A stretch of DNA of 42,351 nt from sequence record NC_025430.1. One strand, 5' to 3'. The position numbers and the translations under genes are program-made. The DNA comes from Escherichia phage vB_EcoM-ep3. Below, in pieces: positions 546-40,240 of this stretch. Within the stretch, counting starts at the first letter, position 1, and every line of letters begins with the position of its first letter. Below the pieces are notes generated by a model. The model was not told the DNA's origin. It saw only the letters and a list, made by a program, of their open reading frames with translations, and made no database searches.

Positions 546-755
546 CTATTTACGTTTTAAGTGTGCGGCGTGGTCGTTGGCACAATCCGCATCGCAATAA
601 ATTTTCTTGCTGCCTTCCGGGAAATCTTCACCACAGTTCAGGCAGTAACCACGCGCAACAGCTTTAACCGCTGGTGCCTTCTGGAGATGCGCGGCAATCA
701 TCGCCGCGCGTTCCTGTTCTTCACGCTCGCAAGCGCGGTCAATATCATCAGCCAT
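546..755 (-). CDS. TraR/DksA-family C4 zinc-finger protein
   Basis: 69 aa; C-terminal CLNCG...CDADC four-cysteine arrangement as in phage TraR-like proteins; tightly packed in the leftward operon. Confidence 0.6.
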
Positions 756-3797: not shown

Positions 3798-5216
3798 ATG
3801 GGCGTAATACTTAGGGACTATCAATCCGACATTATCAATAAGGCGCGCCTTTCTATGCGGCGCAACCGCCGCGTGTTATTGCAGGCACCAACAGGCGCGG
3901 GCAAAACTGCGCTGGCGTCATACATGGCTGGGGAAACATCGGCCAAAGGCCAGCAGGTGTGGTTTATTTGCCACCGCGCTGAACTGGTATTACAGACCAG
4001 TTTGACATTCAGGAAGTTCGGCATTGACCACGGCTTTATTGCCGCAGGCTATCCCATGAACCTGCGCGCCGGGGTGCAGGTGTGCAGCATCGACACCCTG
4101 AAAAACCGCCTGCACACCCTGCCAGCTCCTAAGCTGGCCATCATGGACGAAGCGCACCACTGTGGCGCGGCTGGATGGGCGCGCGTCAACGCCTGGCTGT
4201 TCGAGAATGGCGCGTATGTAATCGGCCTGTCAGCCACGCCAAAGCGCCTGGACGGCACCGGCCTGGATGACCACTTTGATGACATCGTGTTGGGGCCATC
4301 GGTGCGCTGGCTGATGGATAACGGCCACCTGTCTGATTATCGCATGTTCTGCCCGGACATCCCTGACATGAAGGGTGTACGCAAACAGATGGGCGATTTC
4401 TCAAAAGGAGAAACCGCCGAGAAGATGGATAAGCCGAAACTAACCGGCAACATCATCAGCCACTGGCTGAAATACGCCAGGGGCATGAAAACGGTTGGCT
4501 TTGCGGTCAACATCGCGCACAGCCGCCACTTAACGCAGGCATTCATTGATTCAGGCATCCGCGCCGCGCACCTGGATGGCGGCACCGATAAGGCGGAACG
4601 CAAGCGCATCATTCAGGACTATGCCAACGACAACCTGGATGTGATTTTCAACGTGTCGCTGTTCGGTGAAGGTTTCGACCTGTCAGCTATCGCACAGACT
4701 GACGTGACGATTGACTGCCTGATTGACGCGCAGCCCACACAATCATTGTCGCTGGTTTTGCAGAAAGATGGCCGCGTGTTGCGACCGTCCAAAGGCAAAA
4801 CCGCCATCATCCTGGACCACGCAGGCAATGCGCTGCGTCATGGCTTCCCTGACGATGAACGGGAATGGTCACTGGCTGGCGATGATAGCGGCAGCAAATC
4901 CAGCAGTGCTGGTGGTCCACCGCCGCCAGTCATCTGCAAAGGCTGTTTCAACGCCATCCGCCGACCACTGCCGCCGAAGTGCCCGCACTGCCAGAAGGAA
5001 CTACAGGCCGAAGCCAAAGAAATTGAAGTGGCAGAAGGAGAACTGCGCGAAATGGACGAACGCGCCAAAGAAAGCCTGCGCGCCAAGATGAGGCGCGAGG
5101 AGGACGCTTGCAAGGATATTGGCGCACTTACTGCCCTGGCGATGAAACGCGGGCTGCCGAACCCATCAGGGTGGGCCATAGCGAAGATGGGTGGAAGAAG
5201 ATTTAAGCGCAAATAG
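3798..5216 (+). CDS. superfamily-2 DNA helicase with C-terminal zinc ribbon
   Basis: 472 aa; motif I LLQAPTGAGKT, motif II AIMDEAHH (DEAH-like), GLSATP motif III, C-terminal CKGCF...CPHCQ zinc ribbon. Confidence 0.85.
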   Translation: MGVILRDYQSDIINKARLSMRRNRRVLLQAPTGAGKTALASYMAGETSAKGQQVWFICHRAELVLQTSLTFRKFGIDHGFIAAGYPMNLRAGVQVCSIDTLKNRLHTLPAPKLAIMDEAHHCGAAGWARVNAWLFENGAYVIGLSATPKRLDGTGLDDHFDDIVLGPSVRWLMDNGHLSDYRMFCPDIPDMKGVRKQMGDFSKGETAEKMDKPKLTGNIISHWLKYARGMKTVGFAVNIAHSRHLTQAFIDSGIRAAHLDGGTDKAERKRIIQDYANDNLDVIFNVSLFGEGFDLSAIAQTDVTIDCLIDAQPTQSLSLVLQKDGRVLRPSKGKTAIILDHAGNALRHGFPDDEREWSLAGDDSGSKSSSAGGPPPPVICKGCFNAIRRPLPPKCPHCQKELQAEAKEIEVAEGELREMDERAKESLRAKMRREEDACKDIGALTALAMKRGLPNPSGWAIAKMGGRRFKRK

Positions 5217-5320
5217 TAGAGTAATTAATAGGTATAACCGATTGGCGATATTTACCAAAGGAAATGTATAGTTATTTCACCGGCACACAGGTGCCCAACA
5301 ACAAAAGAGGAAACACCCAA

Positions 5321-5989
5321 ATGGCACGTTTAACCGCTGCAATCCGTGATGGCATCATTGCCAACGCAATCAAAACCAAAGACTTTGCAGGCCGTGACAT
5401 GGCTATTGTTCAGAAGCGCGCTGATTTTGCTGAACGTCTGCGCAAGTATGCGCTTGCACAATATGGCCTTACTGATGCGCGCCTTATTGAAATTAAAAAG
5501 CAGATTGAAGAACTGCAAAACGAAGTTAAGCACGAAGGAGCAAGGTTCGTTCGAATTACTTTTGACTCAACTAACCGTGCTTGGGATGTGAACCTGGCAG
5601 GACAGGCGCGCAGGCTTTATCTTGATGGTACTTGTTCAGGGGAAAGCGTAAAACCGCTTTATAGTGATTCACGCGTAGAATACAGCGACGATAAAATTAC
5701 TCCACATTTCCATGAATCTGATTTCACAGTGCGCGATCCTAAATGGCGCGAAGAACTGGACGCCATTGACCTGGAAGCGGCGCAACTGCGTGAAGAATAC
5801 AACACGCTTAAATCAACACTGGCAGCGACAATTTCAGGATTCACGACGGTGGAAAAACTTCTGGAAGCCTGGCCAGACGCGAAAGAACTGATTCCAGAAA
5901 CAACGCCGATTGCTAAACATCCAGGAACAGGCATTGCGCTGTCGGTAGCTGAACTTAACGCGCTGTGTGGAATTCCTACCGGAAAATAA
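5321..5989 (+). CDS. hypothetical protein
   Basis: ORF trimmed to ATG 5321 (MARLTAAIRD) with AAGAGG 10 nt upstream; coding-like composition, coiled-coil-like central region; no family recognised. Confidence 0.55.
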   Translation: MARLTAAIRDGIIANAIKTKDFAGRDMAIVQKRADFAERLRKYALAQYGLTDARLIEIKKQIEELQNEVKHEGARFVRITFDSTNRAWDVNLAGQARRLYLDGTCSGESVKPLYSDSRVEYSDDKITPHFHESDFTVRDPKWREELDAIDLEAAQLREEYNTLKSTLAATISGFTTVEKLLEAWPDAKELIPETTPIAKHPGTGIALSVAELNALCGIPTGK

Positions 5990-7648: not shown

Positions 7649-7686
7649 TTTACTTTCGGAAATGCGCCCTGTACTATGGGCGCATT
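7649..7686 (+). promoter_or_regulatory. candidate promoter with overlapping inverted-repeat operator
   Basis: TTTACT (7649-7654), 17-nt spacer, TACTAT (7672-7677); perfect 9-bp inverted repeat AATGCGCCC (7661-7669) / GGGCGCATT (7678-7686) straddles the -10; 20 nt upstream of the HTH gene. Confidence 0.45.
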
Positions 7687-7706
7687 GTTATTACGAGGCT
7701 ATTACT

Positions 7707-7895
7707 ATGGACGAAAGGACCGAACGACTTCACAACATTATGGCTGAACATGGCTTAACCTGCCGCGACGTTGGCCGTTTACTTGGGCGCACTGAACAAA
7801 CGGTGCTTATCTGGCGCTGTAAGGGCGGGAAAGTCATTCCGACCCACCAGCTTGAATTGCTTGAACTGAAACTGAACGCGCAGGCGGAAAAATGA
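7707..7895 (+). CDS. helix-turn-helix transcriptional regulator
   Basis: Trimmed to ATG 7707 (MDERTERL); HTH-like segment LTCRDVGRLLGRTEQTVLIWR; the longer ORF-track start at 7662 lies inside the palindrome. Confidence 0.55.
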   Translation: MDERTERLHNIMAEHGLTCRDVGRLLGRTEQTVLIWRCKGGKVIPTHQLELLELKLNAQAEK

Positions 7896-8122
7896 ACGCC
7901 TGTACCTGGCAGCCAACCACAGTGACGCTGCAAGATGGGCGCGAAGTGTTGAGCGATAGCCGGGAATGGTTGCTGGAATGCGAAGCCAAATACGTTCTGA
8001 ATCAGCCAACCATTGAAGCACGGCGCACCCTGCTGGCAGCGATAGAAAAACGGCGCGGCGCAACAGCCCGCGAAGAACTAGAACAACGCGCACTGGCCAT
8101 ATGGCGCGCTAACAGGCCATAA
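7892..8122 (+). CDS. hypothetical protein
   Basis: 76 aa; ATGA overlap with the HTH gene; immediately upstream of the primase. Confidence 0.5.
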   Translation: MNACTWQPTTVTLQDGREVLSDSREWLLECEAKYVLNQPTIEARRTLLAAIEKRRGATAREELEQRALAIWRANRP

Positions 8123-8134
8123 AATCGGGGTTCT

Positions 8135-10444
8135 ATGAGTGCACAACAAAACTATAAGGATTTGACCGAACAGGAAATTGCAGAAGCACTTTCCTACATC
8201 GACGCCGGTTGCGACCGTGAAACATGGGTGCGCATGGCGATGGCGGTTAAATCGGAACTAGGCGACGGCGGTTTCACCGTCTGGAATGACTGGTCACGCC
8301 AGTCTGACAAGTACAACAGCAAAGACGCGCGCGACACCTGGAAATCAGTGAAGCGTCACGGCGGCATTGGCATTGGCACCCTGATTGGTGAGGCGCAGCA
8401 GTTCGGCTTTTCCCTGAACGATGCAGAACGCACGCCGCTGACAGCGGAAGAAATCGACGCACGCAAGCGCAAGCGCGAAGCCGAAGAAAAGGCAGAGCAG
8501 CAGCGCCGCGCCGAACGTATGGCGCAGGCAGCCGAACAGGCGCGCAACATATGGGAATCAGCCACCGAACTGGAAGGCGATGAACACCCCTATTTGCAGC
8601 GCAAGCAGGTGCAGGCGTTCGGCCTGCGCGTTGGGCGGTTCTGGACCGAAAAGCGCAGCATTGATGGTGCGCTACTGGTTCCTGTGCGTAACATTGACGG
8701 GCAGATCACCAGCTTGCAGGCCATCTTCCCGAACGAAAACCCACAGCTAGGGCGTGACCGTGATTATTTGCCTGGCGGCCAGAAGCGCGGATGCTTCCAC
8801 GTCATAGGCGGCAAGCCGACTGGCGGAAGCCCGGTTATTGTCATCTGTGAGGGCTATTCAACCGGCGCGTCAATCCACCAGGCAACCGGCTACTGCGTTG
8901 TAGTGGCGTTTGATGCCGGTAACGTTCCGACCGTGGCCAAGTTGATGCGCCAGCAGTTCGGACGCGCAACAATTGTTGTGGCAGCCGATAACGACCAGTG
9001 GCACGAAGATGGCAAGCAAAATGATGGCGTTCACTACGCGCGCCAGGCCGCAACCACATGCGGTGGCCTGCTGGTGGTTCCGAAGTTCGCCGCATTAAGC
9101 GACAAGCCGACCGACTTTAACGACCTGCACAACCTGCAAGGGCTGGCAGAAGTTAAGCGGCAGATTAACGCCGCAATACCTGAACCGGCAAATGACAACT
9201 TTCTGCCGCTGGATGCAACGGTCAACCCGTTCATGTACCCGCACATGAGCCACCAGCAAAAGCCATTAAGCACCTGGGAAAACCTGGAATGGCTGCTGGA
9301 ACAGTACGGCATCACGGCGCGATATAACGAAATCAGCAAAGATGTGGTGGTGACCATTCCAGGGCGTGACTACGGCGTTGACGCTGCGGCCAACTGTTCC
9401 CTGGCGGAAGTTTCCAGCCTGTGTGCCCGCAACGGTATGCCAAAAGGTGATGTGGGCGACTACATCAAGCTGATTGGCGTGGCCAACCGTTACAACCCGG
9501 CTGCTGATTTCATCACGTCACGGCCATGGGATGGCGTCAGCCGCATTTATGACCTGGTTGACACCCTGACCACGCCGGAAGGCTTTGACCGCAGCCTGGT
9601 GCTGATGATGGTGCGCCGCTGGCTGATTTCTGCCGTGGCTGCCGTCATGAAGCCAACCGGGTTCTGGTCCAAAGGCGTCCTGGTGTTACAGGGTGACCAG
9701 TCATTGGGGAAAACGTCCTGGTTTAAAGCACTGCTGCCGCCGACCATGCGCGACCTGGTGAAAGATGGCGCGACCATCGACCCTAGCAACAAAGACAGCG
9801 TGACCACCGCGATTGGCCACTGGATGGTTGAGCTGGGCGAACTAGATGCAACGTTCCGCAAGGCTGACATTGCCAGGCTGAAATCCTTCATCAGTTCTGA
9901 CGTGGACATGCTGCGCCGCCCTTATGACCGGCTTGAATCGAAGTACCAGCGCCGAACGGTGTTTTTTGCGTCAGTGAACCCCAAACACTTCCTGGCCGAT
10001 GACACCGGGAACGTTCGCTGGTGGACCATTCCGGTGACCGGCGTGAACTACGCCCACGACATCGACACGCAACAGTTATGGGCAGAAGTGGCGCAACTGT
10101 ACCGTGACGGCGAACGCTGGTGGCTGGATCGTGATGAAGAAGCCATGCTGGAAGGCGTCAACAAGGAACACGAATCCATTGACCCGGTAGAGGAAATGAT
10201 ACTGGCGCGCTTTGAGTGGGGCAGCGAACGCATCAGCGCCTACCGCGAACATACCGCCAGCCAGGTGTTGCAGGAAATCGGATTTGATAAGCCGAACAAG
10301 TCACAGGCCACGCATTGCAGTAACGTGCTGCGCAAGCTGACCGGGCAGGAACCGCGCAAGACGAAAAACGGGCGGTTCTTCAACCTGCCGCCGAAGGTGT
10401 TGCAGCCGGATTACCGGCGACCAGATGACAATTCACCGTTTTGA
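8135..10444 (+). CDS. DNA primase-helicase (P4 alpha-like)
   Basis: 769 aa; N-terminal primase-like region, TOPRIM-like acidic motifs (VIVICEGYSTG, VVAADNDQ), C-terminal NTPase region with Walker A QGDQSLGKTS; size and domain order match P4 alpha-type primases. Confidence 0.88.
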   Translation: MSAQQNYKDLTEQEIAEALSYIDAGCDRETWVRMAMAVKSELGDGGFTVWNDWSRQSDKYNSKDARDTWKSVKRHGGIGIGTLIGEAQQFGFSLNDAERTPLTAEEIDARKRKREAEEKAEQQRRAERMAQAAEQARNIWESATELEGDEHPYLQRKQVQAFGLRVGRFWTEKRSIDGALLVPVRNIDGQITSLQAIFPNENPQLGRDRDYLPGGQKRGCFHVIGGKPTGGSPVIVICEGYSTGASIHQATGYCVVVAFDAGNVPTVAKLMRQQFGRATIVVAADNDQWHEDGKQNDGVHYARQAATTCGGLLVVPKFAALSDKPTDFNDLHNLQGLAEVKRQINAAIPEPANDNFLPLDATVNPFMYPHMSHQQKPLSTWENLEWLLEQYGITARYNEISKDVVVTIPGRDYGVDAAANCSLAEVSSLCARNGMPKGDVGDYIKLIGVANRYNPAADFITSRPWDGVSRIYDLVDTLTTPEGFDRSLVLMMVRRWLISAVAAVMKPTGFWSKGVLVLQGDQSLGKTSWFKALLPPTMRDLVKDGATIDPSNKDSVTTAIGHWMVELGELDATFRKADIARLKSFISSDVDMLRRPYDRLESKYQRRTVFFASVNPKHFLADDTGNVRWWTIPVTGVNYAHDIDTQQLWAEVAQLYRDGERWWLDRDEEAMLEGVNKEHESIDPVEEMILARFEWGSERISAYREHTASQVLQEIGFDKPNKSQATHCSNVLRKLTGQEPRKTKNGRFFNLPPKVLQPDYRRPDDNSPF

Positions 10445-10567: not shown

Positions 10568-11545
10568 ATGGGTAGCATTGTGAATAAATACGAATTGCAT
10601 TTAGGTGATTGCCTGGAAGTTATGAAGTCTATTCCAGCCGGTAGCGTTGATTTGGTTCTGTGTGATCCGCCGTATGGCACCGCTGGCGGAATGGGAAAGG
10701 GTGAAGAACGCTATTCACGAATTGCGAACGCTGAATGGGATAACGCTATTTCTCCGCAGGCCATTTTTGAAGAATGCAACCGCGTTTTGCGAACTAACGG
10801 CGCTCTTATTCTGTTCAGCCAGGAACCTTACACCAGCAAGTTAATCACAGCGGCGCATGGAAATCTGCCTTTCAGTTATCGACTAATGTGGCTGAAAGAC
10901 CATTTCTCTAACTCGCTGTTGGTAAATAAAGCGCCTGTTTCATACTTTGAAGATTTAGTGGTGTTCTTCAAGAAATATGACACGCTGGCACAGCATCCGC
11001 TAAGGGATTATGCCAAAAAAATCATGGAATACATTGGCAGAAATATAAAGCAGATAAACACTGATTTAGGTCACAGGCGCGCGGAACACTTTTTTTATGT
11101 TGAATCAACGCAGTTCGGGCTGTGTACTGAAAAGACATACAACCAGATTATTGCGCACTATGGGCTTAGTGTGTGTGACTGGCTTATGACTTATGCTGAA
11201 ATGTTAGAAATTGACCGCAGGTTTGCCCGCAGGTTTAACCTGGCGGATGGTGCAAAATACAAATCTAACGTTCTTCAGTACAAAAAGGATTATACCGGCC
11301 TTCACCCAACACAGAAGCCGGTAGCACTGCTGGCTGACATCATCAGGACATATTCAAACCCTGGCGAAACGGTTCTAGATTTCACTATGGGGAGCGGGTC
11401 AACAGGAGTCGCCTGCATCAATGAAGGCCGTAACTTCATAGGAATTGAACTTGATGAAACCTATTTCCAGACAGCGCAGGGGCGCATAATGGAAGCAGCA
11501 GCCGCAAACGATAACCAGGCAAGTAGCAATTCTGTTGTAGCATAA
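10568..11545 (+). CDS. DNA methyltransferase (N6-adenine/N4-cytosine, beta-class)
   Basis: 325 aa; motif IV LCDPPYGT precedes motif I LDFTMGSGSTG (beta-class order); AT-rich relative to neighbours; no cognate restriction enzyme gene nearby. Confidence 0.85.
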   Translation: MGSIVNKYELHLGDCLEVMKSIPAGSVDLVLCDPPYGTAGGMGKGEERYSRIANAEWDNAISPQAIFEECNRVLRTNGALILFSQEPYTSKLITAAHGNLPFSYRLMWLKDHFSNSLLVNKAPVSYFEDLVVFFKKYDTLAQHPLRDYAKKIMEYIGRNIKQINTDLGHRRAEHFFYVESTQFGLCTEKTYNQIIAHYGLSVCDWLMTYAEMLEIDRRFARRFNLADGAKYKSNVLQYKKDYTGLHPTQKPVALLADIIRTYSNPGETVLDFTMGSGSTGVACINEGRNFIGIELDETYFQTAQGRIMEAAAANDNQASSNSVVA

Positions 11546-11592: not shown

Positions 11593-12420
11593 ATGAAACA
11601 AGTAACGATTGACAACGTGCGCGAGCGCATAGCGGAACTGGAAATGGTCAACAGCCACGGTGAACTGTCACTGCGCGGCGAATTTGAACTGGCGTGTTTG
11701 CGGATGCTGGCCGATTCAATGGGCGGCGTTGATGATGACGTGCGCAACGTGGTGGCCCTGCTGGAAAACAACGAATGGGCCGAGCACTGCACTAAAACAG
11801 AGCTTGGCCAGCGCCTGGAAAGCGAAATAACCCGCCTGGTTGGGGACGTGCAGCCAGTGCCGGTGGTAAGCGATGCTGACCCATCACTAAACGCCATGAT
11901 GCGTGCGCTTGATGCGTTCTATGCTGATGACTATGTGCCGGAACGTGCCATGCTGGCAGCTTTCAGAATCCTGCTGGCGGATGTGCGTGAAAAGCCAGCG
12001 CCGGTGGTAACTGATGATAGGCTGCTGGAAAACCTTGAAACGCGCATCAAAAGCCTGGAAATCGGTGAACGCAAAGGCGCATTGAGCACGCATCAGGAAA
12101 TCAGCCTTAAGGCGTATCGCCTGACTGTCCAGTGTCTGCGTTCGTCTGCCATCAGTGATGAAACAGACAACACCGCGCAGCAGTTCGAATCGTTGGCTGG
12201 CATCAATGCGAACAAACATCATGACCAGTGGGTGAATTGCAGCGAAAGGCTTCCAGATCGCTTCCGTGACGTTCCTGTGATGCTTTCTGATGGTTCCCAG
12301 CGAGTTGGGCGCATCAATCATAAAGATACCTGGCTGATTGCCAGTTACCACCATACAAAGCACCAATATACAGGCGACGTTGTTATGTGGTTCGACACGC
12401 CTAATCCCACCAGCGAGTGA
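11593..12420 (+). CDS. DUF551-like domain protein
   Basis: 275 aa; GAGG RBS; C-terminal WVNCSERLPD...VMWFDTPNP resembles the DUF551 pattern found at the C-terminus of many lambdoid early proteins. Confidence 0.55.
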   Translation: MKQVTIDNVRERIAELEMVNSHGELSLRGEFELACLRMLADSMGGVDDDVRNVVALLENNEWAEHCTKTELGQRLESEITRLVGDVQPVPVVSDADPSLNAMMRALDAFYADDYVPERAMLAAFRILLADVREKPAPVVTDDRLLENLETRIKSLEIGERKGALSTHQEISLKAYRLTVQCLRSSAISDETDNTAQQFESLAGINANKHHDQWVNCSERLPDRFRDVPVMLSDGSQRVGRINHKDTWLIASYHHTKHQYTGDVVMWFDTPNPTSE

Positions 12421-12431
12421 AGCGGCAAGCC

Positions 12432-12749
12432 ATGAGCCTGGCAACCGATATTCTGTGGCGCGCTTTTGTTAAGCAGGCGAAACAGAAGCCAACGCCAAAA
12501 TCCGCACCAGTGGAGGCAAAACCAAAACCGGAAGTCACGGCAATCAGCAACCGCAACCTGCACCTGGCGCGCGTCCCTGGCTGTCAGCGTCTGGCTTGGG
12601 GTTGGCAGGTTACGTGCATTGATGGCAAGCAGAAACACAAACTGGGAACCTTCAAAACAATGCCACGCGCACGCATAGCATGGCGACTTTGGCACCTGTG
12701 GAAGCGCCGGGGTTTTGCCGACATCCCAACCGGACCAAACCACGCCTAA
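12432..12749 (+). CDS. hypothetical basic protein
   Basis: Trimmed to ATG 12432 (MSLATDILW); lysine/proline-rich N-terminal half; followed by a terminator. Confidence 0.45.
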   Translation: MSLATDILWRAFVKQAKQKPTPKSAPVEAKPKPEVTAISNRNLHLARVPGCQRLAWGWQVTCIDGKQKHKLGTFKTMPRARIAWRLWHLWKRRGFADIPTGPNHA

Positions 12750-12756
12750 ACACTAA

Positions 12757-12776
12757 CCGCCTTCGGGCGGTTTTTT
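12757..12776 (+). terminator. intrinsic terminator
   Basis: CCGCC-TTCG-GGCGG hairpin followed by TTTTTT (12771-12776). Confidence 0.8.
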
Positions 12777-12838
12777 ATTGCGCAAAAGATGACAAGTATG
12801 ACAAAATAACAACGTCACCAATAACAGAGGAATTCATC

Positions 12839-13120
12839 ATGATTGAACAAAAGCTAGACCGCATCATTGAACTGCTGGAAATCATCGCGGAAGCACAACC
12901 GAAACCGCGCGTTAGTCGTAGTCAAATCAGTGATGCAAAGAGCATTATCGTTTCGCACCGAGAACAACTGAGAGGAAAGCGCATCACGTTTGGTGAATTC
13001 TGTGAAATCATTGGCGTGGAGAATTCAAAGCAAAACCGATTAAAGTTTGGTGCTGCAATGACTGAGGCTGGAGTCAAACAATACAGAACAAAAAACGCAC
13101 GTTATTATTTATTTGCATGA
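12839..13120 (+). CDS. hypothetical protein (AT-rich cargo gene)
   Basis: Trimmed to ATG 12839 (MIEQKLDRIIELLEI) with AGAGGA 8 nt upstream; the longer ORF-track version would read through the upstream terminator; terminators on both sides. Confidence 0.5.
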   Translation: MIEQKLDRIIELLEIIAEAQPKPRVSRSQISDAKSIIVSHREQLRGKRITFGEFCEIIGVENSKQNRLKFGAAMTEAGVKQYRTKNARYYLFA

Positions 13121-13140
13121 TTACTTTTATCTATTGATAC

Positions 13141-13164
13141 AGCGCCTTAATGGCGCTTTTTTTG
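13141..13164 (+). terminator. intrinsic terminator
   Basis: AGCGCC-TTAAT-GGCGCT hairpin followed by TTTTTTTGTTT. Confidence 0.8.
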
Positions 13165-13185
13165 TTTATGAGCGACTCAATAAAA

Positions 13186-13449
13186 AAGTTGGTCACCGTA
13201 GTCACCTGGTAGTCACCGCTTAAACCAATGATATATATACGAAATGACCAAGTGACCAAGGGAGACAAGGAAATAAAAGATTTTAAAAGGTGACAAAAGC
13301 ATTGAGCGCATTAGTACCTAACAGCAACTTTATGAAAACATGGTCGAGTTGGTCACCAAGCCCATAAAAACGGCGCTTTTTCCTTAAAAATCAAGGTGAC
13401 CGAGAAAAACACCGCTTGTCTCCCTGTAGTCACCTATTTCTGGTCACCG
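13186..13449. repeat. iteron array: about 10 copies of GGTCACC/GTCACC core in both orientations (candidate replication origin)
   Basis: Copies at 13191-13197, 13201-13206, 13212-13217 (tandem GTAGTCACC), 13245-13260 (TGACCAAG x2), 13289-13294, 13351-13357 (within palindrome TTGGTCACCAA), 13395-13401, 13429-13434, 13442-13448, with an AT-rich stretch at 13221-13240; no ORF. Confidence 0.7.
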
Positions 13450-13507
13450 TTCATCTTTTCGGCTACAATCCCTATATTGACTTTTATTTATAATTATTGG
13501 GGGTTAC

Positions 13508-13942
13508 ATGGAATTACCGCGCACTGTGCAGGAAATAGCTGACGTTATTGGCCGTGAACGTGCGCTATATCTTATCGGACAACTACCAAAATTGTGGGTG
13601 CCATCGCAGCAGTACCACAAAGTAATTTTGTATGTGCCAAAGCGGATTCGGCCCAATGACCCCCTGGTGAAAATTCTTGGATGGAGTGACGCCAGCAAGA
13701 TGGTGCAGCACTTCGGTGGTGAAATGCTTCACCCGGCTAATTGCGAATACATTTACCGCCGTTTCATCCACAGCAGCATCAAGCGGATGCACAGCGAAGG
13801 AATGGACGCAAAAGCCATTGCGGAACTGCTGGACGTTTCAGAACGCACCGTGAAGCGGCACTGCACTGACAAACCCCACAAAGACACATCACCTGCAAAT
13901 GACAACACTCCCGAACGACTACTAACCGCTATGGGGCAATGA
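13508..13942 (+). CDS. Mor/C-family-like transcriptional activator
   Basis: 144 aa; GGGGG RBS; central FGGE...P segment and C-terminal HTH (MDAKAIAELLDVSERTVKRH) resemble the Mu Mor/C late-activator layout; sits immediately upstream of the lysis and structural genes. Confidence 0.55.
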   Translation: MELPRTVQEIADVIGRERALYLIGQLPKLWVPSQQYHKVILYVPKRIRPNDPLVKILGWSDASKMVQHFGGEMLHPANCEYIYRRFIHSSIKRMHSEGMDAKAIAELLDVSERTVKRHCTDKPHKDTSPANDNTPERLLTAMGQ

Positions 13943-31493: not shown

Positions 31494-32921
31494 ATGGCAG
31501 GTACTGATTTTTTACATGGCGTGGAGGTGCTGGAAATTGATTCCGGTTCACGCGTCATTCAAACCGTTAAATCAAGCGTCATCGGTATTGTTGGCACCGC
31601 GCCAAATGCTGACCCTGACGCATTCCCGCTAAACACCCCAACCCTGATTGCAGGCAGCCAGCGCGAAGCGGCCAAACTGGACATGCTTGGCACCGGTGAA
31701 GGCACCCTTCCCAAAGCACTGGATGCCATCCTGGACCAGATCGGCGCTGTGGTCATCGTTGTGCGTGTTGAAGAAGGCGAAAACGAAGCCGCAACGCTGG
31801 CCAACATCATGGGTGGAGTTAACGCATCAACCGGCAAATATGAAGGCGTTCACGCACTGCTTGGCGCTGAATCCGTTGTGGGCTACTCGCCGCGCATTCT
31901 GTGCGTTCCCGGCTTCACGCATACCCGCGTTCAGGATGGCGTCACCGCTATCACCATCGGCAACGGCGGCAGCGGTTACACCGAAGCGCCTACGGTCACC
32001 CTGGCTGGTGGCGGCGGTGGTTCTGGCGCAACTGCGCAAGCAACCGTGGTTGGTGGCGTCATCACCAAAATCATCGTCACCAACGCTGGCATGGGTTACA
32101 CCAAAGCGCCAACCGTCACCATCACTGGCGGCAACGGCACCGGCGCAACTGCAACCGCATCCGTTGGTATCGCAGCCAATGCCGTGGTTTCTGAACTGCT
32201 TGGCATCGCCAACCGCCTGCGTGCTGTCATCATCGCTGACGGTCCAAACACCAACGACGCTGACGCCATCGCCTACCGCAAAGACTTTGGCAGCAAGCGC
32301 GTTTATGTGGTTGACCCAAAAGTGCTGGTGCTTGACGAGGATGGCACCACGATTACTGACTGGGCATCGCCGCGCGTGGCTGGACTGATTGCCCGCATCG
32401 ACAACGAGCGCGGTTTCTGGTGGTCACCATCAAACCAGGAAATCTATGGCATCCAGGGCACGGCCAGAACCATTGATTTCACCCTGGGTGACACGTCCAG
32501 CCGTGCAAACCTGCTGAACGAAAACGAAGTCACCACCATCATTCGCCAGGACGGTTTCCGCCTGTGGGGCAACCGCACCACTTCCAGCGATCCGAAATGG
32601 GCGTTTCTGTGCGTTGTTCGCACGGCTGACATCATCAATGACAGCCTGTTGCGTGCACACCTGTGGGCCGTAGACCGTGGCATCACCAAACAATACGTCA
32701 ATGACGTGATTGAAGGCGTGAACGCGTACCTGCGCAACCTGGTGAGCCTGGGCGCAATTCTTGGCGGCACGTGTTGGGCTGACCCTGACTTAAATACTGC
32801 TGACCAAATCGCTGACGGTAAGGTATACTTTGATTTTGATTTCACGCCTGTTTATCCGGCTGAACACATTATCTTCCGCAGCCAATTGACCAACGATTAT
32901 ATTAGTGAGGTATTCGAATAA
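31494..32921 (+). CDS. tail sheath protein (P2 FI-like)
   Basis: 475 aa; N-terminus [20 protein letters not shown] and C-terminal [14 protein letters not shown]...CWADPD follow the P2 FI pattern; carries an internal Gly-rich tandem-repeat insertion. Confidence 0.9.
31941..32170 (+). repeat. internal tandem repeat within the sheath gene
   Basis: Two about 105-bp units encoding [25 protein letters not shown] and [24 protein letters not shown]; similarity visible at the nucleotide level. Confidence 0.6.
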
Positions 32922-33974: not shown

Positions 33975-34658
33975 ATGAAGAAAGTAACCAAGAGTGAGGC
34001 GATAGAGCAAGGGCTTAATTATTACTTTACTGGTAAGCCATGTAAGCATGGGCACGTCAGCGAAAGGTATATAAAAGGCGGAGCTTGCGTGGCTTGCCAG
34101 AGAATTAAAAGCAAAGAGTTCAGTAAAAACAATGTTGAATCAGAAAGGATTAGGAAGCATCTAGATTATCTTGCGCACAAGGAAGAAAGGAACGAGAGAA
34201 ATAAATCTTGGCAAAAAAGAAACAGGGCAAAAGTCTCAGAGTATGTTGCAAAATGGAGGAAAAAAAACAGGGAGAAGGTGAACGAAATGGCCGCTGAGTT
34301 AAGGCGCAAAAACCCAGAAAAGCAAAAAGAGGCTGACAGGAGATGGAGAGCAAAAAACAAACACAAGGTGGCCAAGAAAGACGGTCTTAAAAGGGCAGCA
34401 AAACTGGCAAGAATTCCAGTTTGGTTTGGTGAATTTGATGATTTTGTGATTCAGGAAGCGCACACGCTGGCAGCGTTAAGAGGTGATGAAACCGGAATAC
34501 CCTGGCACGTTGACCACATGTTGCCAATGAGGGGGAGAAAAATTTCCGGGTTACACTGCGCGCATAATATCCAGGTGATTCCGGCAGCCATGAATGTGAG
34601 AAAAATCAACAAAATGGTTTTGACCAACCCACTAGAGTGGTTACGCGATGGCGTCTAA
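33975..34658 (+). CDS. HNH endonuclease (free-standing, homing-type)
   Basis: 227 aa; N-terminal Cys/His cluster (CKHGH...CVACQ), C-terminal HNH-like motif WHVDHMLP...LHCAHNIQVIPAAMNVRK; lysine-rich middle; AT-rich; inserted between chaperone and tape-measure. Confidence 0.65.
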   Translation: MKKVTKSEAIEQGLNYYFTGKPCKHGHVSERYIKGGACVACQRIKSKEFSKNNVESERIRKHLDYLAHKEERNERNKSWQKRNRAKVSEYVAKWRKKNREKVNEMAAELRRKNPEKQKEADRRWRAKNKHKVAKKDGLKRAAKLARIPVWFGEFDDFVIQEAHTLAALRGDETGIPWHVDHMLPMRGRKISGLHCAHNIQVIPAAMNVRKINKMVLTNPLEWLRDGV

Positions 34659-39364: not shown

Positions 39365-40240
39365 ATGGCTACTATCGGGCAACTGTATAAATCAAAACAA
39401 ACCGCAGCAACGCCGCGCAAGGTGTTTTGGGTGCCGCTGGCTGAACTGTATGTGGAAGATGGCTACAACATCCGCGACGTGGACCAGGCGCACGTTGAAG
39501 AATTCCGCGATGCGTACCTGGCCGGTGAATATGTGCCGCCGCTGACCGTGGAAGTGACGCAGCAGGGCATCAAGGTGATTGATGGCCACCACCGCTTTGC
39601 CGGTGCAAAGATGGCCGCAGAAACCGGCCTGGAACTGCGCCTGGAAGTGAACGACATCACCGGCACCAGTGAGGCTGACAAAATCGCGCTGATGGTCACC
39701 AGCAGCCAGGGCAAGCCGCTGGAACCGCTGGAACGCGCCAAAGCCTATTCGCGCCTGAAAGCGCAGGGCTGGACCAATGACGAGATAGCCAAGAAGGTGA
39801 AGCGCAGCCCGTCAGACGTGGCCAACATGCTGGCCCTGGCTGAATGCCCGGAACCCATCAAAGACATGGTGCGCGGTGGCCAGATGTCCTACGTGACCGC
39901 CACCGAACTGACCCGCCAGCACGGCACCGAAGCCGAAGCCGTGGCCGCACAGGCGCTGGAAGAAGCCAAAGCCGCTGGCAAGGATAAAGTAACAAAGAAA
40001 TTCACCGAACCGAAGGCACCAAAAGCGCCGAAGGCCAAGCCGGAAGCAATCCAGCCACCGTTCGGCAAAGACAAGCTGACGCGCCTGGCTGACCTGGCCG
40101 TGCAAATCGAACTGGTCCACAGCGATGAACGCCTGGAAGATGCCGAGCCTGACGAATCCATGACCCTGCGCGCACCTGCTGGCGTGGTGCGTGAATTCAT
40201 GGCGCTGGTGGCTGACTACGTGGGCGGGGTGCCGGAATGA
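39365..40240 (+). CDS. ParB-like nuclease-domain protein
   Basis: 291 aa; N-terminal ParB/Srx-type motif (KVIDGHHRF) plus HTH-like segment (GWTNDEIAKKVKRSPSDVANMLAL); Lys/Ala/Pro-rich linker; no parA nearby. Confidence 0.7.
   Translation: MATIGQLYKSKQTAATPRKVFWVPLAELYVEDGYNIRDVDQAHVEEFRDAYLAGEYVPPLTVEVTQQGIKVIDGHHRFAGAKMAAETGLELRLEVNDITGTSEADKIALMVTSSQGKPLEPLERAKAYSRLKAQGWTNDEIAKKVKRSPSDVANMLALAECPEPIKDMVRGGQMSYVTATELTRQHGTEAEAVAAQALEEAKAAGKDKVTKKFTEPKAPKAPKAKPEAIQPPFGKDKLTRLADLAVQIELVHSDERLEDAEPDESMTLRAPAGVVREFMALVADYVGGVPE

Follow-up and report, generated by a model that had tools for sequence, protein, structure and literature searches.

We analysed the genome of Escherichia phage vB_EcoM-ep3 (NC_025430.1; 42,351 nucleotides, the whole of which is referred to as the window) with respect to a repeat array upstream of its late-activator gene, which a preliminary description had proposed as a replication origin for the primase-helicase encoded at 8135–10444. 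The window comprises all or nearly all of a Jilinvirus genome (subfamily Iiscvirinae) from a group of Escherichia/Salmonella myophages, and its closest relatives are Salmonella phage PT1 and the Escherichia phages ECOO78, HeidiAbel (Bas97), Alux-21 and ECO1230-10. The array lies in an intergenic region of 387 bp (13121–13507) that extends from the end of a 93-aa gene to the late-activator gene (13508–13942), with a terminator (13141–13167) at its left. This region had been described as free of open reading frames (ORFs), and indeed we found no credible ORF there, the only ones listed being a 45-aa ORF with a TTG start and a 48-aa ORF with a GTG start. No gene is annotated at the position of the array in any relative compared, no Rfam family matched the intergenic region, and folding of this region together with the 5′ untranslated region of the activator gene gave no significant RNA structure (z = 0.39).

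The repeat array and its layout

The array consists of GTCACC hexamers in both orientations, as the preliminary description had stated. Between 13192 and 13448 we counted eight exact copies, six of them on the plus strand (GTCACC at 13192, 13201, 13212, 13352, 13429 and 13443) and two in the minus orientation (GGTGAC at 13289 and 13395), together with three copies carrying one mismatch (AGTGAC at 13251, GGAGAC at 13261 and GTCTCC at 13418), all of which align with exact copies in relatives. These 257 bp hold eight exact copies where 0.29 are expected (Poisson P = 1.0e-9), and the other 42 kb hold 48. The array was also the top strand-collapsed 6-mer cluster of the entire window (8 copies per 300 bp), and the maximum in 20 block-shuffled genomes was 4–5 copies, never more than 5. 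The extended unit is T-N-GTCACC: the T two bases upstream of the core was invariant in 25 sites of the ECOO78 and Arya arrays and was also seen at those window sites that we inspected. Sites elsewhere in the genome had been said to occur at background frequency. The density of the array is unique, but the GTCACC background is itself in ∼3-fold excess over the shuffle expectation (56 versus 18.7 copies genome-wide), owing to the frequent use of GTC-ACC as a Val-Thr codon pair, for example in the sheath gene (31941–32529). Relatives with other repeats have a similar background (36–65 copies). The tail-sheath gene also holds a secondary GTCACC cluster of seven sites in 600 bp (31941–32534), six of which are in frame 0 (five GTC-ACC Val-Thr pairs and, on the other strand, one GGT-GAC Gly-Asp pair). 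We considered this cluster as an equivalent of crr, the second repeat cluster of P4, and rejected it, since its sites are in-frame codons and phages with other iterons have the same background.

At the left end of the array, iteron cluster I (13190–13217, plus strand) comprises three T-N-GTCACC units as direct repeats; their cores, at 13192, 13201 and 13212, are spaced 9 and 11 bp apart, and the units are positionally homologous to four in relatives. It is followed by the AT-rich stretch that had been noted between the clusters, the patch TTAAACCAATGATATATATACGAAAT (13220–13245, 73% A+T), which lies between oppositely oriented iterons, is a candidate DNA-unwinding element and carries a TTAA...TGATAT motif that is kept across iteron types. 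Cluster II (13251–13294) is inverted and contains AGTGAC (13251), GGAGAC (13261) and GGTGAC (13289), the first two being degenerate in the window and exact in relatives, as well as a second AT-rich tract (13270–13288). Further to the right, one iteron (core 13352–13357, plus strand) is embedded in the palindrome TTGGTCACCAA (13349–13359), and an inverted GGTGAC follows at 13395–13400 (minus strand). The two are separated by the motif CATAAAAACGGCGCTTTTTCCTTAAAAATCAA (13363–13394), found conserved in an alignment of arrays from GTCACC- and GTCCCA-type relatives and including an invariant AATCAA element; it is possibly a host-factor or bending site. This motif (A-tract...TTTATAAATCAA) and the patch at 13220–13245 form a scaffold that may provide IHF-like host-factor or unwinding elements, with a partial match only to the IHF consensus. 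The promoter-proximal cluster IV (13418–13448, plus strand) consists of the degenerate GTCTCC at 13418 and GTCACC at 13429 and 13443.

The limits 13186–13449 given in the preliminary description hold for the dense part of the array, but iteron-like sites reach further left, to 12788–12819: GATGAC (12788–12793) and TATGAC (12797–12802), both degenerate and in the minus orientation, and GTCACC (12814–12819) on the plus strand. Upstream of these sites, the sequence points to an ancestral terminator of the early/middle operon (CCGCCTTCGGGCGG plus a T-run, 12757–12776, plus strand). The same hairpin is present in PT1, HeidiAbel, Alux-21, ECO1230-10 and Arya and directly precedes the array in most relatives.

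On the right, the array runs into a sigma-70-like promoter of the activator gene (13441–13469, plus strand; −35 TGGTCA, 17-bp spacer, −10 TACAAT), of which the −10 element GCTACAATC is invariant in six aligned arrays. The last iteron overlaps the −35-like hexamer TGGTCA in the window, an overlap that is not kept in ECO1230-10. The 5′ leader of the gene (13470–13507, ATTGACTTTTATTTATAATTATTGGGGG) is almost invariant among the aligned Jilinvirus arrays and shows no significant RNA structure, as given above. The gene itself (13508–13942, plus strand) encodes a 144-aa protein with a C-terminal helix-turn-helix (HTH) that is assigned to late transcriptional activators by PHROG 836 (E 1e-30). It had been called Mor-like, but the Pfam Mor family gave no match, only generic HTH families being found below or near their cut-offs.

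Repeat cores in relatives and the primase-helicase

A megablast search with the region aligned only its flanks, which at first masked the conservation of the array. When the relatives were read by eye, every one examined showed the identical architecture in the identical place: a terminator, a run of direct repeats, the AT-rich patch with TTAA...TGATAT, inverted repeats, an AT-rich spacer, repeats in both orientations around the A-tract/AATCAA motif, the −10 element and the activator gene. Further arrays came from 79 IMG/VR loci recovered with the primase-helicase as query (numbers with the prefix L denote loci or contigs of the comparison). What differs between the phages is the core of the repeat. 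GTCACC is shared by the window, PT1, ECOO78, HeidiAbel, Alux-21, KA2-1, Arya and L093–L095, while GTCCCA is found in ECO1230-10, ET-SD-TH, L015, L019, L017, L021 and L024 and weakly in PPpW-3, the GTCCCA arrays falling, among the IMG/VR loci, into three clades (L015/L019, L017/L021/PPpW-3 and L024). Other cores are GTGACCA/GTCACT (Persinger, L037), CCCTACAC (L026), GTGCAC/GTACAC (L029, L030), GGGTAT (L035) and GGTTAC (Serratia phage MQ-4, L040, L044 and L046). A site-by-site comparison of six aligned arrays revealed that the repeat positions are homologous and that GTCACC is replaced by GTCCCA at each of them in concert, with the scaffold motifs invariant. At the sequence level, such a concerted change is the signature of sites that would be read by a co-evolving, sequence-specific protein. 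The array of PPpW-3 (L012, 41022–41356) is degenerate, with four GTCCC copies, and its centre is occupied by an extensive AT-rich palindrome (GATACAGATATATACCTGTATC / TAGATACAGGTATCTATATGTATCTA), which the other arrays lack.

The distance between the array and the primase-helicase gene also varies. In L026, the array begins right after the stop codon of this gene and the activator gene comes directly next; in L031, the two genes are separated by just a 590-bp intergenic region. In Jilinvirus, the array and the initiator gene have become separated by the insertion of variable genes.

The primase-helicase (8135–10444, plus strand, 769 aa; assigned by Pfam, a PDB sequence match and PHROG as DNA primase/helicase) is the proposed initiator. 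Pfam places a PriCT-2 domain at residues 16–86, a Toprim domain at 234–336 and a VapE-like, superfamily 3 (SF3)-type helicase domain at 462–680 (PF05272, E 2.5e-51), and phmmer matched residues 447–652 to the Rep protein of the Staphylococcus aureus pathogenicity island (SaPI) SaPI1 (7pds_A, E 1.1e-18). The C-terminal domain that follows (residues 681–769, encoded at 10175–10444, plus strand) has no Pfam annotation and is the proposed iteron-binding domain. With this domain alone, a word-indexed protein search gave one match only; an exhaustive HMMER search retrieved 899 representative proteins, in most of which the domain ends a protein of 700–850 aa. AlphaFold2, run on a 48-sequence alignment, predicted three helices and, after them, a canonical winged helix (predicted local distance difference test score (pLDDT) 91), with a strand at 704–706, a helix at 708–715, a recognition helix at 722–736 and strands at 741–743 and 746–751, the predicted wing being residues 743–746 (TKNG).

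To find proteins that follow the repeat type, all ORFs of at least 45 aa were translated and compared with relatives in 40-aa segments, the score of a segment being its lowest identity to the four GTCACC genomes less its highest identity to the GTCCCA genomes. Among 2885 segments, the top scores were all in the primase-helicase, at residues ∼686–769 and 406–465. When L015 and L019 were added as GTCCCA genomes (831 segments), only residues 681–769 stayed above 0.05, the sole other match above this value being an antisense ORF on the same DNA. In the helicase core, L015, L019 and KA2-1 each share 95% identity with the window, whereas residues 700–755 are 68% identical in L015/L019 (GTCCCA) and 88% identical in KA2-1 (GTCACC). 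Thus, among the conserved ORFs, the C-terminal domain alone co-varies with the repeat core. Residues 406–465, just before the VapE-like domain, are ∼65% identical in ECO1230-10/ET-SD-TH and 88% identical in L015/L019; since they diverged in the former and not in the latter, they do not track the iteron type, and they may be the left edge of a recombination block.

Other candidate binders were compared as well. Both the ParB-like protein (39365–40240; 97% identity with ECO1230-10, where the repeat is another one, and 50–57% with KA2-1 and Arya, which share the repeat) and the late activator (92% versus 59–61%) were rejected, the identity being unrelated to repeat type. We also rejected a 77-aa HTH protein (7662–7895; 93–95% identical to its ECO1230-10 and ET-SD-TH homologues and 57% to that of Arya), the DUF7696 protein (7892–8122) and the product of the gene at 12417–12749, the next one upstream of the array, which either show no co-variation or are missing from some relatives, and a DksA-like protein (546–755, minus strand), which is absent from ECO1230-10 and is therefore not a common binder.

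Within Jilinvirus, 51 residues of the primase-helicase separate GTCACC from GTCCCA phages, and 18 of these are in the last 70 residues. The discriminating residues include 723, 725, 729 and 730 in the recognition helix and 739–750 around the wing. All GTCACC phages have Thr-Lys-Asn as wing tripeptide 743–745. The eight GTCCCA phages, which belong to three clades with clade-specific recognition helices, all have Ser-Gly-Ser. In Persinger, a sister to the GTCCCA Pseudomonas phages, the wing reads Thr-Ala-Ser and the repeat GTGACCA. In MQ-4-type phages, everything after residue 375 is replaced, i.e. the helicase and the C-terminal half, and the repeat is GGTTAC.

A candidate origin and its closest known systems

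We propose that the array is the replication origin of the phage and that its iterons are bound by the C-terminal winged helix of the 8135–10444 primase-helicase, a reading that rests on sequence comparison and a structural model and to which we assign a probability of about 0.72. The preliminary description had likewise suggested an origin read by this domain, for which the co-variation of the predicted winged helix now provides comparative, purely computational support. In the proposed mechanism, about 11–14 T-N-GTCACC units in both orientations around the AT-rich patch would be bound by C-terminal winged helices, and several initiator protomers would assemble on the oppositely oriented repeat clusters. 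The patch at 13220–13245 would melt, the VapE-like helicase ring would self-load there and primers would come from the Toprim domain in the same protein, before the host polymerase takes over. At the single site, the largely conserved recognition helix could recognise the conserved 5′ T-N-G-T-C, and the wing the variable 3′ triplet. All of these steps, from binding through melting and self-loading to initiation at the array, are ones that we infer.

The proposal resembles the replication system of SaPIs. Their Rep proteins are self-loading SF3 helicases, the C-terminal winged helix of which recognises penta- or hexanucleotide iterons, and their origins consist of 6–12 iterons just downstream of rep, in opposite orientations flanking an AT-rich centre; in SaPI5, primase and Rep are fused (PriRep) (PMC9371898). 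Similarly, the window protein fuses a primase with a VapE-like/SF3-type helicase that is homologous to SaPI Rep by sequence (PDB 7pds), and ends, like Pri-Rep, in a predicted C-terminal winged helix. The arrangement of the window hexamers is also alike, with plus-strand sites at 13192–13217, the AT-rich stretch at 13220–13245 and minus-strand sites at 13251–13294, and in both systems the iterons change from element to element together with the C-terminal domain. The array of the window differs in not being adjacent to the initiator gene, although such adjacency is present in the relatives L026 and L031. Adjacency is the one point of difference, with self-loading and the recognition of the iterons by the C-terminal domain being proposed for the window protein. 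SaPI Pri-Rep/ori is the closer known system, compared with P4.

The preliminary description had called the primase-helicase P4-alpha-like and had compared the array with P4 ori and crr. The P4 record indeed contains type 1 repeats (TGTTCACC/GGTGAACA) in ori (9310–9413) and crr (4291–4590), in both orientations and with an AT-rich stretch between them, and the iteron TGTTCACC is one base apart from the window unit TGGTCACC, as had been claimed. In P4, too, primase, helicase and origin binding by a C-terminal winged helix (in the window protein a prediction) reside in a single polypeptide, 8-mer iterons lie in both orientations around an AT-rich stretch, and ori is likewise upstream of a late operon. 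The Toprim domains are homologous (Toprim_3 in both; BLASTP 30% identity over 242 aa, E 1e-18), but BLASTP gave no alignment between the window protein and P4 alpha beyond Toprim. Alpha has a Zn ribbon, D5_N, DUF5906 and Pox_D5, whereas the window protein has PriCT-2 and a VapE-like rather than a D5-type helicase. Comparison of the window C-terminal domain with the origin-binding domain of alpha by hhalign revealed no sequence relationship (probability 0.08%). The label therefore fits the Toprim domain and not the helicase or the C-terminal domain, and the one-base likeness of TGGTCACC to TGTTCACC may be a coincidence, given the non-homologous binding domains. The iterons are similar, but the window lacks a second repeat cluster of the crr kind, and there is one array per genome.

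Lambda O/ori-lambda and the iteron plasmids (RepA/RepE/pi) also have repeated initiator sites beside an AT-rich unwinding element, and in these systems the DNA-binding domain of the initiator and the iterons co-evolve and are exchanged as a module. They differ in that their iterons are 17–22 bp long, that their initiators are not helicases or primases and require host or phage helicase loaders and, in lambda, that the origin is inside the initiator gene.

Alternative explanations, neighbouring genes and meaning

Several observations weigh against the array being the origin. The repeats are degenerate in the window, with 8 exact copies compared with 12–13 in relatives, and the array is not adjacent to the initiator gene, lying 2.3–2.7 kb past its stop codon (10444). 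GC and AT skew, tried for origin location, both track transcription direction only; GC skew in particular is dominated by it and is uninformative on the origin. The co-variation could partly reflect physical linkage: in ECO1230-10 and L015, the diverged block may span from the C-terminal domain through the array, and the intervening gene is 82% identical compared with a typical value of at least 90%. Finally, the invariant adjacency of the array to the late-activator promoter also fits a transcriptional role. Indeed, the repeats might be nothing but operator or activator sites that time the late-activator and late genes, with no part in replication. The array is always immediately upstream of the conserved TACAAT promoter, whatever its distance to the primase-helicase gene, and the last window repeat overlaps the −35-like TGGTCA, although in ECO1230-10 the last repeat is off this position. 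We consider purely transcriptional control unlikely, since the sole co-varying segment belongs to the primase-helicase and not to a transcription factor, the activator and the small HTH proteins are without co-variation, and 11–14 sites in both orientations with an AT-rich patch look like an origin and are in excess of what a single promoter would call for.

The linkage within the diverged block raises a further alternative, namely that another host or phage protein binds the repeats and that the match to the primase-helicase C-terminus reflects hitch-hiking in one recombination block. Taken by itself, the GTCCCA lineage of Jilinvirus may indeed be a case of such joint travel: it could have gained the C-terminal domain and the array at once, and the C-terminal domains of ECO1230-10 and L015 are nearly identical. 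Moreover, our scan covered only proteins common to all compared genomes. However, the Ser-Gly-Ser wing recurs with GTCCCA in three clades while the remaining C-terminal sequence follows clade phylogeny, and this cross-clade association is the main argument against pure linkage, though it rests on three clades. MQ-4-type phages, with their swapped C-terminal half, have a new repeat as well, the pattern is absent from all other conserved ORFs, and a host binder could not account for at least six cores among phages with overlapping hosts, which together make a different binder improbable. An encoded ParB-like HTH protein (39365–40240) and the clustered short repeats that are typical of partition sites could also point to a parS-like site, or the array could be a packaging (cos/pac) site. 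Both are very improbable. The ParB-like protein is 97% identical where the repeat is different (ECO1230-10) but only 50–57% where it is the same (KA2-1 and Arya), and for KA2-1, Arya, MQ-4 and PPpW-3, the first base of the linear GenBank record lies ∼80 bp upstream of the small terminase gene, which suggests a packaging site near that gene, ∼2 kb downstream of the array. An origin bound by the primase-helicase thus remains our preferred reading.

Between the ancestral terminator at 12757–12776 and the left end of the array lies an inserted gene (12839–13120, plus strand, ATG start at 12839) that encodes a stand-alone winged-helix protein of 93 aa and has its own intrinsic terminator (13141–13167, plus strand). 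The C-terminal half of this protein is in register with the initiator winged helix (hhalign profile-profile probability 88.8%, E 2.5e-6), and AlphaFold2 predicted the same winged-helix topology as in the initiator domain (pLDDT 86). Its wing reads RTKNARYY and its N-terminal helix MIEQKLDRIIELLEIIA is invariant. Homologues are present at the matching position in L093, L094 and L095, all with GTCACC iterons and TKN-wing initiators; the gene was found only in these and the window, i.e. in some GTCACC-type phages, and in all four the iteron-like sites GATGAC, TATGAC and GTCACC lie upstream of it. The protein is a paralogue of the initiator C-terminal domain, and it may act as an origin regulator or competitor, a role that recalls the function of P4 Cnr.

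A more tentative extension, which we regard as rather doubtful, is that the array is a dual-purpose switch that combines an origin with coupling to the late activator, that the 93-aa paralogue acts on the same repeats and that the wing/repeat swaps constitute a recognition code. Primase-helicase bound to the promoter-proximal iterons would then tie all late genes to replication, and it is speculative that initiator occupancy of these repeats modulates late gene expression as well. The 93-aa protein could serve as a copy-number brake with a Cnr-like function or could block the origins of co-infecting relatives with the same iterons, and TKN with GTCACC and SGS with GTCCCA would be a readable winged-helix recognition code.

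Elsewhere in the window, we observed two variable 'moron' genes: one at 10568–11545 (plus strand), encoding an N6/N4 DNA methyltransferase and common only to ECOO78 (100% identity), and one at 5264–5989 (plus strand), a 241-aa ORF common only to ECO1230-10 (76%). A 227-aa ORF with an HNH-like motif (HVDHMLP...H..N; 33975–34658, plus strand) lies between the tail-chaperone and tape-measure genes, a locus that measures only ∼130 bp in close relatives and is partly matched in KA2-1; it looks like an inserted homing-type endonuclease. The same region holds the window's second-highest 6-mer cluster (GCAAAA, 7 copies). We found no tRNA in this genome, whereas PT1, Arya and MQ-4 have tRNA-Arg.

Neither an origin nor iterons are mentioned in the BASEL collection and ECOO78 papers or in the titles and abstracts of the other papers found on the phages and taxa of this group, and a search for primase-helicase iteron origins yielded nothing on the group. 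The design as such is already known from SaPIs, P4, lambda and iteron plasmids; what is new is its probable occurrence in this phage group. Our analysis provides Iiscvirinae with a specific candidate origin and initiator that can be tested (Jilinvirus, Hiroshimavirus and relatives; poorly characterised small myophages, some of which have been proposed for therapy) and adds the 93-aa winged-helix gene as a candidate new regulator of origin firing. The design of a SaPI-type self-loading primase-helicase with hexamer iterons would thereby be carried over from Gram-positive satellites to Gram-negative tailed phages. With at least six repeat specificities on one origin scaffold and changes focused on a few winged-helix residues, the group would represent a natural experiment that could be used to work out and engineer initiator-origin specificity and to build orthogonal replicons.

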